From: an uncultured Chloroflexia bacterium
GTDB taxonomy: Bacteria; Chloroflexota; Limnocylindria; Limnocylindrales; CSP1-4
Direction: 5' to 3'
DNA length: 64,000 bases
Assembly: GCA_963740825.1 (NCBI GenBank)
Contig: CAVUFD010000002.1
Span: 4,267-68,266, forward strand
Numbering within the stretch: position 1 is the stretch's first letter; every line of letters begins with the position of its first letter. The notes under the pieces are model-generated. The model was not told where the DNA came from and searched no databases. It saw only the letters and a list, made by a program, of their open reading frames with translations. Positions 7,408 to 56,720 of this stretch are shown here, piece by piece. The position numbers were made by a program, and so were the translations under genes.

Positions 7408-9046
7408 GTGCGGATCCCCGTGGCCCTGTACCTGCTCGCGCTCGTGGCCCGGCTCGCCGTCGCGGCCCTGTTCCCCGACCCCGCGTACCCCGATTCCTTC
7501 TACTACGTGGACGTCGCGCGCCAGCTCGCCGCGGGGCACGGATTCAACGTCGACTTCATCTGGATCTTCCCCGAGGTCGGCGGTGCGATCCCCGCCAATC
7601 CCATCCTGCCGATCCCGTCCAACGCGCACTGGATGCCGCTCGCCTCGATCGTCCAGGTGCCGTTCATCTGGCTGCTCGGCCCGACGGCGATGGCGTCGGC
7701 CCTGCCGTTCGCGTTCATCGGGGCGCTGGCCGCGCCGCTCGCGTGGGCGATCGGGCGGGACGCCGGCGCGCCGCGGTTCGTCTCGATCGGCGCCGGGATC
7801 CTGACCGCCTTCCCGGCGCTGTCGTTCGTGTACATGGCCCAGCCGGACAACTTCTCGCTGTACCAGCCGCTGGTCGCCGGGCTCGCTGTGGCTGGCCGGA
7901 CGCGGTCTGCGTGGCCACCCGCGCGACTTCGTCCTCGCCGGGCTCCTCGCCGGCGTCGCGACGCTGTCGCGCAACGACGGCGTGCTCGTGCTGGCCGTCA
8001 TCGTCGCGACCGTGCTGTGGGACCGGGTCCGTGCCCGCTGGGCGTCCGGCGGGAAGCCGGCCCGGCCGCCCCGGATCCCCCTCGCCGCGGCCGCCGGCTC
8101 GGTGGGCCTGTTCGTGCTCGCGGTCGTCCCCTGGTACGCGCGCCAGCTGGCGGTGTTCGGCCAGCTCTCGCCATCGACCTCGTCGGGCCGCGTGCTGTTC
8201 ATCCGCGACATCAGCGAGTGGAACAGCATCACGATCCCGGCCACGCTGGACCACCTCCTCGGGATGGGCATCGGCCCGCTGCTGCTGACCCGGGTCGGTG
8301 GCCTGGTCGCCGCGGCGTTCATCTTCTCGATCCTGGTCGGCGTGCTCGTGTTCGTCCCGTTCATGGTCATCGGGGCGTGGCGCCGGCGGCGCGACGCGCT
8401 GTTCGGGCCGTTCCTGGGCTACGTCGTGCTGCTGTTCGCGTTCAGCGCGATCGTGTCGGCGGTCCACGTCCCGGGCGGGACGTTCATCCACTCGGCCGTC
8501 GCGCTGGCCCCGCAGGGGTACGTGCTCGCGCTCGAGGGGATCGTCGCCGGCGCGGCCTGGCTCGCGGCACGACGGCGGGGCTGGGACTCGACCTCGGCGG
8601 CACGCGTGTTCGTCGGCGGGGCCGTCGCGTTCGGCGTCCTCGCCGCGGTCGTGGGCGCGAGCGCGGTGCACCGGAGCTGGGACGCCAAGCGCCAGAACAT
8701 GCAGGCCGTCGCGACGGCGCTCGACGCCGCGGGCGCGCCCGCGACCGACCGCGTGATGTCCATCGACGCCTCCGGCTACCGCTACTGGACGGGTCATCCG
8801 GGCGTGGTGCTGGTCAACGACCCGCTCGACACCGTGGAGCGGGTCGCGCGCGCGTACGGGATCCGGTGGCTCGTCCTCGAGCCGAAGGACAGCGTCGAGG
8901 CGGTGCGCGAGATCCTGGTCGACGACCAGCGGCCGCCGTGGGTCGGCCCGCCGATCCTCGAGCGCGACGGCGTCTCGCTCTATCCCGTCTGCCTCGACGC
9001 CGGTGACACCCGGTGCGCCACCGCCCTCGCGGGCACCAGCCGATGA
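7408..9046 (+). CDS. GT-C fold ArnT/PMT-family (COG1807, GT39/83-like) membrane glycosyltransferase #1; one frameshift near 7880
   Basis: GTG start. N-terminus MRIPVALYLLALVARLAVAALFPDPAYPDSFYYVDVARQLAAGHGF..., many TM helices, and a soluble C-terminal domain (...GIRWLVLEPKDSVEAVREILVDDQRPPWVGPPILERDGVSLYPV). It is transcribed divergently from the DUF2029 genes. Confidence 0.6.
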
Positions 9047-26413: not shown

Positions 26414-26634
26414 ACGCCTTACCACGTCTCGCGCTCGCTCCGCGCCGCCTCGCGTCCCCGCGCTCGTATGCGCACCACGTTTACCGGCGGCGGATCCACG
26501 GGCCCGCGGGGCCCCGGATGCTCCCCGCAGACCTGGGACGCATACCACGGTCGATTCGGGCGCGATTCGCGGTCGCGTGACGCCTCACACCGGCCCAACA
26601 GGCGCTTCGCTAAACCTGGCACGCATACGGCGGG
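26414..26634. repeat. array of five short imperfect direct repeats (consensus ACGCATACCACGG) spaced about 45-60 bp
   Basis: Copies at about 26414, 26468, 26537, 26579 and 26620, inside a 570-bp convergent intergenic region. Confidence 0.45.
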
Positions 26635-26795
26635 GCCCGATGCGGCCGGGCCGAGGCCGGCCAGGCGTAGAGCGGAGTCGAGGGCCGGCCGAGTCGAGGG
26701 GCGGGGCGGCGCGGGGCCCGATGCGGCCGGGCCGAGGTCGGCCAGGCGTAGAGCGGAGTCGAGGGCCGGCCGAGTCGAGGGGCGGGGCGGCGCGT
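26632..26795. repeat. tandem direct repeat, 2 x about 82 bp (one mismatch)
   Basis: GGGGCCCGATGCGGCCGGGCCGAGGCCGGCCAGGCGTAGAGCGGAGTCGAGGGCCGGCCGAGTCGAGGGGCGGGGCGGCGC is repeated head to tail. It contains GGCCGG/CCGGCC hairpins. Confidence 0.7.
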
Positions 26796-26917
26796 GGCCC
26801 GAGAGGCCGCGCCCGCGCCGAACCCCTCAAATGCGAACGCCGGCCCCTGCAGACCGGCGTTCGCTGTCCCCGAGACCCGAACGTGGAGGGACGTTCAGGT
26901 CGTGCCCTGGAGGTGTT

Positions 26918-32231: not shown

Positions 32232-32660
32232 CTAGGCGCCGCGCCTGGGGCCCTCTCGATGCCGACGCTCCGCCACCCGGATCCGGAGCAGGGCCGACTG
32301 GAGCTGGGCGCGCGCGGCGGCCAGGTCGGCACCCTCGACGTAACCGGACTCGAGCGCCCGCTCCGCCTCGCGACGGGCCTCCTGGGCACGCTCTAGGTCG
32401 ATCTCGGAGGCCAGGTCGGCCGTCTCCGCCATGACCACGACCTTGTCCGGCCGGACCTGGAGGAAGCCGCCCGCGATCGCGAAGCTCTCCTCCTCGCCGC
32501 CCTTCCGGATCTTGAGCTCCCCCACCCCGAGCAGGCTCACCAGCGGCGTGTGATGCGGCAGGATCCCCAGCTCGCCCTCGGCACCGGGCACGAGCACCAT
32601 GTCGACATCATCTTCGTACGCCAGCCGCTCCGGCGTCACGATCTCGAGGTGGAGTGTCAT
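32232..32660 (-). CDS. atpC: F1 ATP synthase epsilon subunit
   Basis: MTLHLEIVTPERLAYEDDVDMVLVPGAEGELGILPHHTPLVS. Confidence 0.9.
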   Translation of the reverse strand: MTLHLEIVTPERLAYEDDVDMVLVPGAEGELGILPHHTPLVSLLGVGELKIRKGGEEESFAIAGGFLQVRPDKVVVMAETADLASEIDLERAQEARREAERALESGYVEGADLAAARAQLQSALLRIRVAERRHREGPRRGA

Positions 32661-32703
32661 GTGCGTGCCCCGTTCCAGCGGCCGCTCTCGGCGTCAGGCT
32701 GTC

Positions 32704-32947
32704 CGGCCAATTCCAGTTGCCGTCGCCGGCTTCGCGCGGCTCGGCCACTGAGATCGCCGGCCATCCTGCCGCCTACGCGGCCGCTTGGCAGCACCCCCAA
32801 ACCCCTCAACGCGAGATCGACGCGCCCGAAACGTGGCGTCCACGTGGGGGGAGGGCAGAAGGCACCCGCCTCCGCGTAGCCGGTTGGACGGCAGCCGATC
32901 TCAGTCGCCGAGGCGCGCGCAGCCGCCAATGGCGACTGGAATCGGAC
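32704..32947. repeat. inverted pair of about 52-bp palindromic elements inside the 328-bp atpD-atpC spacer
   Basis: 32892-32947 is GCCGATCTCAGTCGCCGAGGCGCGCGCAGCCGCCAATGGCGACTGGAATCGGAC. 32704-32760 is its reverse complement at about 80% identity. A further inverted repeat CCGCCTACGCGG / CCGCGTAGCCGG (32769/32866) lies between them. Confidence 0.55.
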
Positions 32948-32988
32948 GGCCGGCCGGCCGGCGAAAGCGGAGGCGAAGACCACGGCAC

Positions 32989-35291
<2,303 letters not shown>

Positions 35292-35487
35292 CGCGAGTCT
35301 CCGCCCTCGTCGGCCGCCGCCCGGCCGGCGCGCGGCGGCTCGCCCACGACGGCTCTCCTACGCCCCTCTGGAGTGTTTGAGCGCGATGCGGCACCCGCAG
35401 ATCCCACGTCACCACCGCAAGGCGTAGACGGGCGTCGTTCGAGCCGGTTCCGGCCACAACACCACGCCCAGGCGTAAACGAGGCACG

Positions 35488-35595
35488 TTGGGCGGCGGGT
35501 TGGGCGGCGGGTTGGGCGGCGGGTTGGGCGGCGGGTTGGGCGGCGGGTTGGGCGGCGGGTTGGGCGGCGGGTTGGGCGGCGGGTTGGGCGGCGCG
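35488..35595. repeat. 12-bp microsatellite (TTGGGCGGCGGG) x 8 perfect + 1 imperfect copy, in the 400-bp atpA-atpG intercistronic spacer
   Basis: Perfect head-to-tail copies. The plus strand is G-rich, carrying GGG tracts separated by 2-4 nt. Confidence 0.9.
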
Positions 35596-35690
35596 CGGCA
35601 ACCCGAGAAGCGGACGCGCGGCGCGCGCACCAACGACTCGCCACCCGCGGGGGCGGACGAGCCGGGCGGCGGAGCCGGACGCGACCACCG

Positions 35691-37223
<1,533 letters not shown>

Positions 37224-37245
37224 GGCGTCTCCGTTCGGGCGGGGG

Positions 37246-37797
37246 CTAGCGGGGGCGGGTCCCCGTGTGGAGCTGGTCGCGCAGCCGCTCGAGGCGGCCG
37301 CGGATGGAGGCATCGAGGAGCCGGTCGCCGATCTGGACGGTCAGCCCGCCCAGCAGCGCCGGGTCGACCTCGGTCCGGAGGTCGACCGCCGATCCGGCCA
37401 TCGCCTCGACCCGCGTGCGGATCTCGGCGGTCTCGTCTTTGGTCAGGGCCGCGGCGCTCGTGACCGTGGCCACGACGATGCCGCGATGGGCGTTGAGCTG
37501 GCGCTCGTACTGCTCGCTCACGGCGCGCAGCTCGCGCGCCCGGCCTCGTTCCACGAGCAGGCTGACCAGCCGCAGGGCGCCGGGGCGAACCCGGCCCTCG
37601 AGCAGCTTCGCCACCACCGCCAGGCGCTCGGCCGAGGGGATGGCCGGGCTGTCGACGACAGGCTCGACCTCGGGACGCCCGAGCATGTCGGCCGCCGTCG
37701 CGAGATCGTCGCGCCAGCCGTCGAGCTCGCCGTCGCGCAGGGCGACCTGGAAGGCCGCCTCCGCGTACCGGCGGGCTCCGGTGGTGGATCGTGCCAT
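37246..37797 (-). CDS. atpH: F1 ATP synthase delta subunit
   Basis: Size, position in the operon, and OSCP-like sequence. Confidence 0.85.
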
Positions 37798-38369
37798 CAG
37801 CCGGCGGACCCGCCGGCGGCCGGATCCGCGAGGAACTCGGCCACGAGCTTGCGCTGGCGGTCGCCCGTCATGGATTCGCCGACGACGCGGCCGGCGGCCG
37901 CGAGGGCGAGATCGGTGACCTCTCCCCGGAGCTCGGCGACCGCGCGCTGGCGCTCGGCCTCGATCTCGCTGGTCGCGCGCTCGCGCAGCCGGGCGATCTC
38001 GTCGCGGGTGGCCGCGACCTCCTGCTCACGCGTCTCGGACGCGGCCTTCTGGGCTCGGTTGAGGATCTCGTTGGCCTCGCGGCGGGCCTCCTGGAGGGCG
38101 GCCTGGCGTTCCTGCTCGGCCGATTCCCGATCGCGCCGGGCCTGCTCCGCGTCCTGCAGCCCCTGCTCGATCCGGGCGCGCCGGTCGTTGAGCGTCTTCA
38201 CCAGACCGCCGAACGCGATGCGCTGGACGATCAGGAAGAACACGACGAAGTTGGCCGCGGCGACGATGATCCAGAACACGTTGATCTGGAACTTCGTTTC
38301 CGCGGCCGCCGGCACGGCGACCTGGCGCAAGACCTCCCCGACGACGGCGAGGGTGTCCATGGGCGTCAC
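37797..38369 (-). CDS. atpF: Fo ATP synthase b subunit
   Basis: Single N-terminal TM followed by a long charged coiled coil. The stop overlaps the atpH start. Confidence 0.85.
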   Translation of the reverse strand: MTPMDTLAVVGEVLRQVAVPAAAETKFQINVFWIIVAAANFVVFFLIVQRIAFGGLVKTLNDRRARIEQGLQDAEQARRDRESAEQERQAALQEARREANEILNRAQKAASETREQEVAATRDEIARLRERATSEIEAERQRAVAELRGEVTDLALAAAGRVVGESMTGDRQRKLVAEFLADPAAGGSAG

Positions 38370-38382
38370 CTGTTCCGCTGGG

Positions 38383-38604
38383 TCAGCCTGCGGCGGGCTT
38401 GATGAAGATCGCGAGCAGGCCGACGACGACCGCGAGGACGCCGAGGCCCTCGGCGAACGCCGCGAGGATGATCGCGAGGCCCCGGATCTCGCCGGCGGCG
38501 TCGGGGTTGCGCCCGATCGCGGCCGCGGCCAGGCCGGCGAGGATGCCGATGCCGATGCCCGGCCCGATCACGCCGAGGGCCGCAAGGGCGCCAAGGTTTT
38601 CCAT
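38383..38604 (-). CDS. atpE: Fo ATP synthase c subunit
   Basis: MENLGALAALGVIGPGIGIGILAGLAAAAIGRNPDAAGEIRGLAIILAAFAEGLGVLAVVVGLLAIFI. Classic c-subunit hairpin with the essential E. Confidence 0.85.
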   Translation of the reverse strand: MENLGALAALGVIGPGIGIGILAGLAAAAIGRNPDAAGEIRGLAIILAAFAEGLGVLAVVVGLLAIFIKPAAG

Positions 38605-42374: not shown

Positions 42375-43643
42375 TCAACACGGCGCGACGACCGTAGTGG
42401 ACTTGTTCGTCGTTCCGCCAGGCCCGCGAAGAATCAGGATGACGTTGTGGCTCGTGCCCGGGTCGTAGCCGGGATCGGAGGCATAGTCGAAGCCGAAGGA
42501 TCGCTGGCTCGAGGTCTTTCCGTCGACATCCCAGGAGTAGCCGCCGTTCGCTTGGCTGAAGACGTTCTGGGCGTTCGAAACGTTGAACGAATAGGTTGTT
42601 GAGCCGGGCGAACAGCTCGCGGCAATCGAACCCGACGGATGGGGCTTGGGGGTCGGCTTGGGCGTGGGCTTCGGGGTCGGCTTGGGCGTGGGCCTGGGGG
42701 TCGGGCGGGGGGTCGGCTGCGGCGTGGGCCGGGGCGTCGGGCGCGGGGTCGAGCGCGGCTCCGGCTTGGTCGGCTTACGGGTGGGCCTGGGGGTCGGCTT
42801 GGGCGTCACGCTCGGGGTGGTGGTTGCGGCGGGCAGCCCGGACGCGACCGGGACGGAGCCATCCGTTGGGGCGTCGGACGGCGGCTCGGTGATGACGACG
42901 GCGATCGCCGCCGAGGTCCCGCGCTCGTCCGTGGGCAACGGCGGACCGGGTTCGAACGCGGGGCTGACGGTGGTGACGACCAGGACCACGACGATTGCGC
43001 CCAGGAGCACGGTCGCCGAGTCTCGCCACAGGCGGTAGCGGCGGGAGATCGGGACCCTCGGGTCGGCCGCCGCCGCGCGACCGGTCGGCCTGCCCGGCGT
43101 GACCGGCGTGAGCTCGGTGACCAGGGGCCTCGGCGCAGTCGGCGCGAGTGGCATGAAGGGCGTGGGCGATGCCATCGCGGCGCCCAGCGTGAGCGACGCC
43201 CCTGGCGCGACAGGCTCGGGGCGGTCCGGCTCGTCGGCCTTGGCGGGCTCGAGCGGCAGGTCGTCGGCGGCCGTGGGCGCGCGGGCGGCCGCGAAGGCCG
43301 TGAACAGGGGGTCGGGTGCGGTGGCGGGCCGGAGCGGATGGTCGGCGGGTTGGGGCCGCCCGACCTCCGCCGCTGCCGCGGCGGCGGCCTCCGTTTCGGC
43401 GTCCTCCAAGTACGCCGCCAGGAGCCCCGGGCGCTCGGTGCCGAGCACGCCGATCCGCCACGCGATGTCGTCCTCGGACAGGCTCGGGACGGGCGTGGAC
43501 GCGACCGCGATCCGGGCCTCGGCGGCCCGGCTGCGACGGCGCCGTACGAACACAACCGCCACCGTCGTAACGACGACGATGACGGCGATCAGGGCGATCA
43601 GGAGTAGCGGCGGCATGACCCCTCGGAGCCGGTCGGCAGGCAT
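42375..43643 (-). CDS. membrane protein with Pro/Thr-rich ([10 protein letters not shown]) linker and C-terminal PKD-like domain
   Basis: Two TM helices; a PTPRPT repeat run; a C-terminal WDVDGKTS...[24 protein letters not shown] resembling a PKD fold. Confidence 0.6.
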
Positions 43644-55269: not shown

Positions 55270-55952
55270 TGAAGGGTGCCGGGCTACGGGTGGTGATCGC
55301 CGAGGACTCCGTGCTGCTGCGCGAGGGCCTGGTCCGACTGCTCGAGGACGCCGGGGCGTCGGTCGTTGCCAAGGTCGGCGACGGCCCGTCGCTCGTCGAC
55401 GCGGTCGTCGAGCACCGGCCGGACGTGTCGGTGGTCGACGTCCGGATGCCCCCGACCCAGCGCGACGAGGGGCTGCGGGCGGCGATCGAGGCGCGCCGCC
55501 GCGTGCCGGGCTCGCCGGTCCTCGTGCTCAGCCAGTACGTCGAGCGCCAGTACGCGAGCGAGCTGCTCGCGGACCGGGGCGGTGGCGTGGGCTACCTCCT
55601 CAAGGACCGCGTCGCGGACGTCCGCGAGTTCATGGACGCGCTCGCCCGCGTGGCGGCCGGCGGGACCGCGCTCGATCCGGAGGTCGTCGCCCAGCTCATG
55701 GTCAGCCGCCGGCGCGACGACCGGCTGGCGGCCCTGACGCCGCGCGAGCGGGAGGTCCTGGCCGCGATGGCCGAGGGCAAGACCAACGTCGGGATCGCCG
55801 CGGCGCTCGTGATCAGCGAGGGCGCCGCGGAGAAGCACATCACGAGCATCCTCGGCAAGCTCGACCTGCCCGACACCGAGAACGACAACCGGCGGGTGCT
55901 CGCCGTGCTCGCCTACCTCGACGCGGAGGGGGGTCCCGACCCGGGCGCCTAG
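55270..55952 (+). CDS. NarL/LuxR-family response regulator (LiaR/VraR-like)
   Basis: GTG start. LRVVIAEDSVLLREG...VSVVDVRMP (REC). LuxR HTH LTPREREVLAAMAEGKTNVGIAAALVISEGAAEKHITSILGKL. Confidence 0.8.
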
Positions 55953-56165
55953 CCCGTGCCGCCGGGTCCCGAAGCGGAGCCAGGCCGCGCCGCCGGGTCC
56001 GACCCCGGGCGCCTAGCCGCGCCGCCGGACGCCATCCGCGCCGCCGGCCGAGCTCGCGCCTGCGGGTCCCAACCCGGGCGCCTAGCCGCACGCCGGCCGA
56101 CCCGGGCGCCCCGACCCGGGCGTCCAGCCGCGCCGCCGGCCGACCCGGGCGCCTCGCGTCACGCC
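55932..56165. repeat. array of about 5-6 imperfect direct repeats derived from / overlapping the 3' end of the response-regulator gene (core GACCCGGGCGCCTAGCC)
   Basis: Copies at about 55932, 55994, 56062, 56099, 56114 and 56150. Period about 62-68 bp, then shorter. Each of the first three carries the regulator's terminal ...GPDPGA-stop coding string. Confidence 0.6.
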
Positions 56166-56720
56166 TGCGTGTGGTGTTGGAGCCGGGCGATCCGGCCATC
56201 CCGCCTTGGATACGCCTCCCGATGGTGCCGCGAGGTGGATCGGCGTATCGGCGGGTCACAGCACTCCACCCAGGCGTAAGACGCGAGAACCTTCGGCTCC
56301 GAGCCGGCCCGGCGGTCGGCCTGCGTCGGGTTCGCGAGACCGGCCGATGCCCGCCCGCTCCGGGGACCAGGCGTTCGAGTCACATGTCCGCGGTGCGGGC
56401 GCTACCGCACGCGGCCATGCCACGCGCCCGCCCCGCGAGCGCAACCGACATGACGACCGCCAGTTCGTGCCGGCGGTCCGCGGTGCGGGCGTTGGTCACG
56501 ATGGTCGTGACCACGGTCCGCGAGATGGCCCGCTGACACCAGTGGTGGTCGTCGGCACGCTCGACCGGGCCCGCCGAGACCGGCGCGGGCGCCACCAACG
56601 CAACTACGGTCCGCCGCGTGAGCATCTGCCGAATTCGGGGCCGGCCGGCCGACGAACGATGGCGCGGCCGACGGCGACGGCGCGACCGACGGCGACGGCG
56701 CGACCGACGGCGAGCGACCC

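Follow-up and report, generated by a model that had tools for sequence, protein, structure and literature searches.

Why should an ATP synthase operon carry, between the genes for its alpha and gamma subunits, a 399-bp gap that contains a perfect 12-bp tandem array, and does the array serve the operon or is it merely tolerated there? We addressed this question for a complete F-type ATP synthase operon, which Pfam and open reading frames place on the minus strand (atpE, atpF, atpH, atpA, atpG, atpD, and atpC) of the 64-kb stretch of DNA analyzed here, referred to below as the window. Table 1 lists the features of the operon.

Anatomy of the atpA–atpG spacer

Table 1. Genes, spacers, and spacer components of the atp operon, in window coordinates
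Feature	Position	Strand	Evidence or description
atpE	38383-38604	-	Pfam
atpF	37797-38369	-	Pfam
atpH	37246-37797	-	Pfam
atpA (F1 alpha subunit)	35691-37223	-	Pfam PF02874/PF00006/PF00306; atpA calls of relatives are 510 aa
atpA–atpG intercistronic spacer	35292-35690	-	399 bp, 78% GC
5' part of the spacer	35594-35690	-	97 nt; blastn against all fetched loci matches only itself
Perfect 12-bp tandem array	35487-35593	-	TRF: period 12, 8.9 copies, 100% matches, score 214
Z element (REP-like, three clustered short units)	35292-35484	-	Alignments, direct repeat, motif search
GGAG Shine-Dalgarno-like motif	35299-35302	-	7 nt upstream of the atpG ATG; read directly
atpG (F1 gamma subunit)	34431-35291	-	Pfam PF00231, E = 1e-92; ATG at 35291-35289
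atpD	32989-34401	-	Pfam
atpD–atpC intercistronic spacer	32661-32988	-	328 bp; second long gap of the operon
atpC	32232-32660	-	Pfam

The atpA gene ends with a TGA at 35693-35691. Its open frame extends back to 37313, with 30 extra codons (37224-37313, minus strand) that overlap the end of atpH; the true start is probably the methionine of MAIRSDEI..., as in the relatives, and not that of the longer ORF. A ranking of intergenic gaps was dropped because gene calls made for the window from GC3, a crude criterion, were too incomplete.

A preliminary description of this DNA, made from the sequence alone, had reported eight to nine perfect copies of a 12-bp repeat in the spacer, with the G-rich strand serving as template and the C-rich strand appearing in the mRNA. 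Both statements hold: the TRF program returned 8.9 copies, and, with the atp genes on the minus strand, the plus (template) strand reads (GTTGGGCGGCGG)n and the mRNA (CCGCCGCCCAAC)n, the latter composed of 71 C, 18 G, 18 A, and no U. The label "microsatellite" needs correction, as head-to-tail units of at least about 10 bp constitute a minisatellite or VNTR in usual usage, and the array, with its 12-bp unit, belongs to this class. A two-unit pattern with up to three mismatches matched the window eight times, each time at the array, while shuffles yielded a mean of 0.01 matches and reached eight in 0 of 100 cases; no other copy of the 12-mer was found in the 64-kb window. Furthermore, a scan of 241 million metagenome records for two units recovered only 14 unrelated matches of two to three copies each, none in an atp context and mostly within other repeats. 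Thus, the 12-bp unit does not appear to form a dispersed family. Inspection ruled out a CRISPR or an iteron, the units being contiguous, free of spacers, and located inside an operon.

The last repeat unit pairs with sequence upstream of it in a 17-nt imperfect inverted repeat (35583-35599/35618-35634). A structured-RNA reading of the spacer was dropped, since its RNA fold is not more stable than those of shuffles and tends, if anything, toward less structure (z = +1.0). Rfam at gathering thresholds gave no match in the whole window. A scan for sigma-70 promoters and intrinsic terminators likewise found no site within the spacer. The proposal that the repeat acts as a phase-variable tract finds no footing here: the unit is a multiple of 3 and has no stop in any frame, and, as the spacer holds no promoter- or terminator-like site, a change in copy number would alter neither the reading frame nor promoter spacing.

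Tandem repeats of other kinds occur elsewhere in the window. An 81-bp G-rich repeat (2.3 copies, 95% identity) lies at 26630-26813, where no gene is confidently called, and repeats of 32, 43, and 18/36 bp lie at 55931-56153 and 56642-56713, in a gap of ~770 bp that leads from a plus-strand to a minus-strand gene.

Related loci and the elements at the junction

The comparison covered 80 loci encoding atpG relatives, all from soil or freshwater Chloroflexota MAGs, many of them labelled Limnocylindrales or Limnocylindria; closer relatives were added by protein search and exact-protein look-ups. Look-ups with atpG, atpD, and atpA found no conspecific contig, and the look-up with the 73-aa c subunit alone worked. 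Across the 80 loci, the length of the atpA–atpG spacer varies between 0 and 411 bp. The earlier expectation that alpha and gamma genes are separated by a few tens of base pairs is therefore right for most relatives, but not for the clade over its range of 0 to 411 bp. L095, at about 94% nucleotide identity, has a 235-bp spacer and L110 a 219-bp spacer, both free of the array. Among relatives at 89 to 93% nucleotide identity, the spacers are 6 to 9 bp long in L096 to L104 and 22 to 23 bp in L106 and L107; spacers of 133 to 170 bp with a different element, family X, occur in L105 and in the second copy of L108. With the nearest relatives having 6 to 23 bp or other elements at this junction, spacer length is not conserved, which is essentially the outcome that the preliminary description had named as refuting its reading. 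The array itself was found in 0 of 34 related atp loci.

L108 (ENA ERZ25039478 contig_8847) contains two atp gene sets in scrambled order, with a fused atpA–atpG call of 805 aa. Its two atpA–atpG spacers differ, one being short and the other holding an X-like element; the double set probably reflects a long-read misassembly or a duplication.

The 3' ~190 nt of the spacer align with the whole atpA–atpG spacers of L095 and L110, the only related loci that share this Z element. The array and the ~97 nt located 5' of it are without match in the relatives and hence specific to the genome of the window, and the 100% identity of the copies suggests a very recent expansion. By these alignments, the array is a young, strain-specific expansion within an inserted repeat element. 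We consider it extremely unlikely that the copy number or the perfect identity of an existing array was produced by assembly or polishing. Related contigs do come from assemblies with visible frameshifts (L105 and L108), and the look-ups provided no conspecific contig for comparison; however, typical short reads are longer than the 107-bp array and span it easily, the sequence on either side is unique and has homologs in relatives, and assemblers collapse or miscount repeats but do not invent them. An error in copy number would not remove the array.

Within Z, two direct units of the form TACGCC-N-GTGGT(A/G) are located at 35461-35476 and 35411-35426 (72% identity), and a third, inverted unit at about 35351-35380. 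The stems of these units, weak in the window, are better defined in L095, where Z has near-perfect terminal inverted repeats (GGCTCGTTTACGCC/GGCGTAAACGAGCC). The Z motif matches the 64-kb window twice, both times in the atpA–atpG spacer. Upstream of atpG, the Z-bearing relatives have GGGAGG at the site that corresponds to GGAG in the window.

Other species have other elements at this junction. Family X, ~150 bp long with the core GTGAGCGAGCGC present twice, occurs in at least 10 loci and is inverted in L006 and L003; in L043, it is also found between atpC and aroA (8900-9000). Its pattern, GGCAAGGCG..GAGCACGTGAGCGAGCGCAC..GTGCGTGAGCGAGCGCGCGCAG..CAACGC, is found in either orientation at the atpA–atpG junction in many species (L004, L005, L006, L012, L014, L023, L025, L034, L057/58, L105, and L108), and X appears to be a mobile, MITE-like element. 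Family Y consists of three REP-like hairpins, CTACGACC...GGTCGTGGTAG, in four loci (L050, L062, L070, and L071). The Y spacers are 300 to 360 bp long, with hairpins CTACGACC..GGTCGTGGTAG or CTACCACGA..TCGTA and CTAC/GTAG ends, and L041 is similar. Y hairpins and Z units share CTAC/GTGGTAG ends, but beyond these no homology between them could be established. At least three unrelated families (X, Y, and Z) and singleton elements thus occupy the atpA–atpG junction in different species. Judged from these sequences, small REP/MITE-like repeats have landed at the junction repeatedly, and the long spacer is not an ancestral regulatory region.

The lack of conservation also bears on the G-quadruplex (G4) potential of the array. 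The preliminary description had noted that the template strand fits the G4 consensus, and as a formal motif it does: under a criterion of at least four G3 tracts, loops of 1 to 7 nt, and G4Hunter ≥ 1.5, the array forms the longest canonical (G3+N1-7)x4 cluster of the window (35490-35588, plus strand, 99 nt, 17 G3 tracts), with a mean G4Hunter score of 1.62. The window, at 72% GC, contains 10 canonical G4 clusters and 26 regions with G4Hunter scores of at least 1.5, so that the array tract is outstanding in length, not in kind. Its DNA hairpin fold is no better than those of shuffles (z = -0.16).

A regulatory reading would have the template-strand G4, an i-motif, or the C-rich RNA selected to modulate elongation, mRNA processing, or alpha:gamma stoichiometry. 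Such a role could draw on the length and strand of the cluster and on its place between a gene needed at three copies per complex and one needed at a single copy. Conservation lends it no support, however: presence at a conserved position, as expected of a functional regulatory G4, was seen in 0 of 34 related atp loci, the array is missing even from L095 at 94% nucleotide identity, and the close clade mostly has spacers of 6 to 23 bp. Moreover, atpD, whose product is also needed at three copies per complex, lies downstream, so that a roadblock would depress beta too; the spacer RNA is not unusually structured, as its z score indicates; and the 10 clusters and 26 regions, one of them in a PT-repeat coding region, look like a by-product of repeats at 72% GC. 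We therefore regard this regulatory reading as very unlikely and the G4 potential of the template strand as probably incidental.

The PT-repeat coding region just mentioned encodes a PT/PK-rich linker in a predicted membrane-anchored protein of 422 aa (42375-43643, minus strand; repeat at 42642-42806). This repeat ranks first in the window by G4Hunter (2.28, antisense strand) and second by mRNA C/G ratio.

Reading frames across the spacers

The atpA–atpG spacer of the window is open from end to end in one frame (35284-35694, minus strand, 136 open codons), in which the array spells (AAQP)9. The frame opens with an ATG (35694-35692) that overlaps the atpA stop in an ATGA ending at 35691, and it closes with a TAG (35286-35284) that overlaps the atpG start (ATGGCTAG, 35291-35284). 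For the window alone, the chance probability of such a bridge is ~0.10, and that of openness alone at such a length ~0.30; the argument for the bridge rests on the population of relatives and not on the window by itself.

A frame was counted as a bridge if it had a start codon between -3 and +8 relative to the atpA stop and a stop codon between -3 and +14 relative to the atpG start, and spacers of at least 80 nt were considered long. These two ranges were fixed following an initial inspection of the data, and identical ranges were used in the null, a dinucleotide shuffle of the spacer interior combined with a random frame shift. Among the long atpA–atpG spacers of relatives, which hold unrelated elements, 18 of 23 were bridged against an expectation of 3.55 (Poisson-binomial P = 8.6e-13). 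When each element family contributed one result, seven of nine were bridged (P = 2e-5). The effect is frame specific: bridges were present in 17 of 22 real sequences, in none of the 22 after a 1-nt deletion, and in 1 of 22 after a 2-nt deletion, while reverse-complementing the interior left 9 of 22. In addition, the seven spacers that combine an [A/G]TGA stop with a ATGGCTAG start all have lengths divisible by 3. The bridge is absent from 5 of the 23 long spacers, one of which, L105, comes from an assembly showing frameshifts. Within Z, the window, L095, and L110 differ by indels of 12 and 6 nt, and the frame through Z is the same in each of them despite the different start contexts ATGA, TAGATG, and GTGA.

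The bridging frames do not behave as genes. Their GC3 values range from 0.64 to 0.76 (0.75 in the window), compared to 0.97 to 0.98 in atpA, atpG, and atpD, and this lack of codon bias indicates that they are not genes; any translation of them would leave no trace in codon usage. When the three ORFs through the array were searched against Pfam, the sole match was a low-complexity "PT repeat" below threshold. The bridge was accordingly not accepted as a protein gene, given its GC3 of 0.75 and the absence of a protein family match. The preliminary description had dismissed the (QPAA)n ORF as an artefact; it was correct in that the ORF is no gene, but the same frame joins the atpA stop to the atpG start, an architecture that is enriched in relatives.

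The spacer could be neutral, untranslated DNA, with atpG translated from its own Shine-Dalgarno sequence and the open frame a coincidence of high GC. This account is compatible with the modest chance values for the window (~0.10 for the bridge and ~0.30 for openness), with the absence of codon bias, with the GGAG located 7 nt upstream of the atpG ATG, and with the fact that gene callers left such frames uncalled in relatives. It does not accommodate the excess of bridged spacers among relatives (18 of 23 versus 3.55), the collapse of the count from 17 to 0 and 1 with deletions of 1 and 2 nt, the frame-preserving indels within Z, or the second bridged spacer of the operon, between atpD and atpC. 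As read from these alignments, neutrality with a coincidental frame fits the window alone, not the population data, and we consider it improbable, though deserving of more weight than the regulatory G4.

The atpD–atpC bridge runs from a GTG at 32992-32990, which overlaps the atpD TGA, to a TGA at 32659-32657, which overlaps the atpC ATG. Across relatives, 12 of 25 atpD–atpC spacers were bridged, with about 5 expected, an enrichment weaker than that for atpA–atpG.

This second spacer is kept in all close relatives (229 to 325 bp; 77% identity to L102), with similar gaps in L001, L004, L009, L011, and L102 to L107, and is missing from most relatives whose atpD is ≤ 91% identical at the amino acid level. 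It holds conserved inverted blocks (CGCTCTCGCCG/CGCCGAGAGCG, ACTGAGATCGCC/GGCGATCTCAGT, and GGCTACGCGG/CCGCGTAGCC) and a C-rich/G-rich apex, and RNAalifold predicts three hairpin domains with compensatory changes in 21 of 43 pairs; Rfam returned no match for it. We regard the atpD–atpC spacer as a candidate conserved, structured intercistronic element. In L007 and L008, the atpD–atpC inserts are flanked by a repeated CTGATG (GGCTGATG...insert...CTGATGCC), as also seen in L004, L011, L017, L022, and L026. The flanks resemble a duplicated target site derived from the overlapping stop/start (TGATG) of the ancestor, and a duplication of this kind would automatically supply the coupled start and stop for a bridging frame.

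Rut sites have been described as at least 78 nt long, with C commoner than G and C residues every 11 to 13 nt (PMC6407284). The array RNA has this composition, with a C/G ratio of 4.33 and a 12-nt period, and the predicted MFE structure of the spacer RNA leaves it unpaired; the C/G ratio of the array is the maximum of any 78-nt window on either strand, the 99.9th percentile being 2.53. From this one could derive a Rho-dependent attenuator, in which the array RNA, left untranslated within a long gap, would serve as a rut site and lower the transcription of atpGDC relative to that of atpBEFHA. The extreme C/G ratio over 78 nt, the predicted lack of pairing, and the agreement with the published rut description (PMC6407284) all speak for such a site. 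Against it, an open frame coupled to atpA spans the gap, and Rho would be kept out of a gap that is translated; beta, needed at three copies per complex, would be reduced as well by attenuation; and the array is not conserved. In our judgment, an attenuator at this position is highly improbable.

Proposed mechanism and comparison with known systems

Our preferred reading, which we consider probable though well short of certain, is that the array is an in-frame minisatellite inside a MIRU-like insertion, across which ribosomes would translate so that translational coupling is preserved. MIRUs insert at start codons in such a way that the internal ORF of the element is coupled to the gene, and coupling by overlapping stop and start codons is thought to minimize the effect of the insertion on expression (PMC12548453). 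The spacer studied here has the corresponding layout, as it lies between co-oriented operon genes and contains an internal ORF that overlaps both the upstream stop and the downstream start.

Under this coupled-insertion reading, the atpA–atpG junction of Limnocylindria-like Chloroflexota would ancestrally have measured 6 to 23 nt before a REP-like element was inserted, and the 12-bp array would have expanded next to that element, most likely by replication slippage. A survivorship filter may then have operated, in which insertions persist only if they offer a stop-free frame from on or near the atpA stop to the atpG start. Ribosomes that finish atpA would reinitiate at the overlapping start of the bridge and translate across the insertion; on terminating at the atpG start, they would hand over to atpG, and coupling would be preserved. 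Such translation would also keep covered a C-rich, G-poor RNA of 12-nt periodicity, whose profile, when naked, would fit a Rho entry site. A unit of 12 nt, equal to four codons and free of stops in all frames, could grow or shrink without breaking the bridge, and this is the simplest and probable reason why the array is tolerated at the junction. Coupling may, on the other hand, be dispensable, because atpG has its own Shine-Dalgarno-like GGAG.

A further-reaching version is put forward tentatively, as a possibility that we would not expect to hold in full. The atp junctions would be hot spots for unrelated mobile repeats that survive only as coupled, translated bridges; the array would be an in-frame VNTR whose copy number could tune the number of ribosomes reaching atpG and hence alpha:gamma; and its C-rich RNA, a potent Rho entry site if translation fails, would act as a translation-dependent checkpoint for the distal operon.

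Taken alone, the array is an ordinary young VNTR and says little; more interest attaches to the MIRU-like constraint by which unrelated insertions in the atp operons of Chloroflexota keep a bridging frame. The junction amounts to a natural, replicated experiment on which insertions an essential, stoichiometry-sensitive operon tolerates, and the many independent insertions at this one place almost always retain a frame that connects the stop of the preceding gene with the start of the following one. If the bridges are translated, coupling-preserving insertion in the style of MIRUs would extend from mycobacteria to an uncultured class of Chloroflexota, and a rule for annotation would follow, namely, that such gaps are not genes and yet are not free of constraint. 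The same reading offers a simple explanation for the expansion of repeat units divisible by 3 inside operons.

Several known systems resemble parts of the spacer. Like the pilE-associated G4 of Neisseria and G4-forming minisatellites, the array has repeated G3 tracts with short loops and satisfies both the motif and the G4Hunter threshold. It differs from a pilE-type G4 in that it is not conserved and has no link to recombination or a promoter, that its G4 is predicted from sequence, and that its C-containing loops (CGGC) favor competing duplex or hairpin structures. With rut sites, the array shares a length of at least 78 nt, a large excess of C over G, a 12-nt C period, and a predicted lack of structure; it differs from them in lying inside a frame that is probably translated and in not being conserved.

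REPs located in operons can stabilize the upstream mRNA. Z partly resembles REP/BIME elements in its three short units, the third inverted, which form imperfect palindromes with weak stems in the window, in its CTAC...GTGGTAG-like ends, and its position in an intercistronic gap, and Y does so in its clear CTACGACC...GGTCGTGGTAG hairpins in relatives. Unlike REP/BIME elements, Z has only two motif matches in the 64-kb window, both in the spacer, and a GTAG-head role is not established for it; no RAYT gene was seen in the sequences covered, namely, the 64-kb window and loci of ~12 kb. Rickettsia palindromic elements (RPE) are mobile and palindromic, and they are tolerated in translated sequence because they are stop free and frame preserving. 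The spacer element, in contrast, lies between genes, has a mini-ORF of its own, does not extend a host protein, and shows no sequence relationship to RPE.

The closest parallel is with MIRU and MIRU-VNTR loci. In terms of dispersal, the Z motif and the 12-mer are confined to the spacer within the 64-kb window, while X is found across relatives at two kinds of site and in both orientations. The spacer departs from MIRUs in its unit, which is 12 bp and not tens of base pairs long and has no further copy in the 64-kb window or the related loci and no dispersed family in the metagenome scan; X, Y, and Z have no sequence relationship to MIRUs, and the host is a member of the Chloroflexota, not the Actinomycetota. 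In both cases, small and tandem repeats occupy intercistronic gaps in the operons of a high-GC bacterium, and both combine ATGA-type overlaps with a frame that is preserved across copies.
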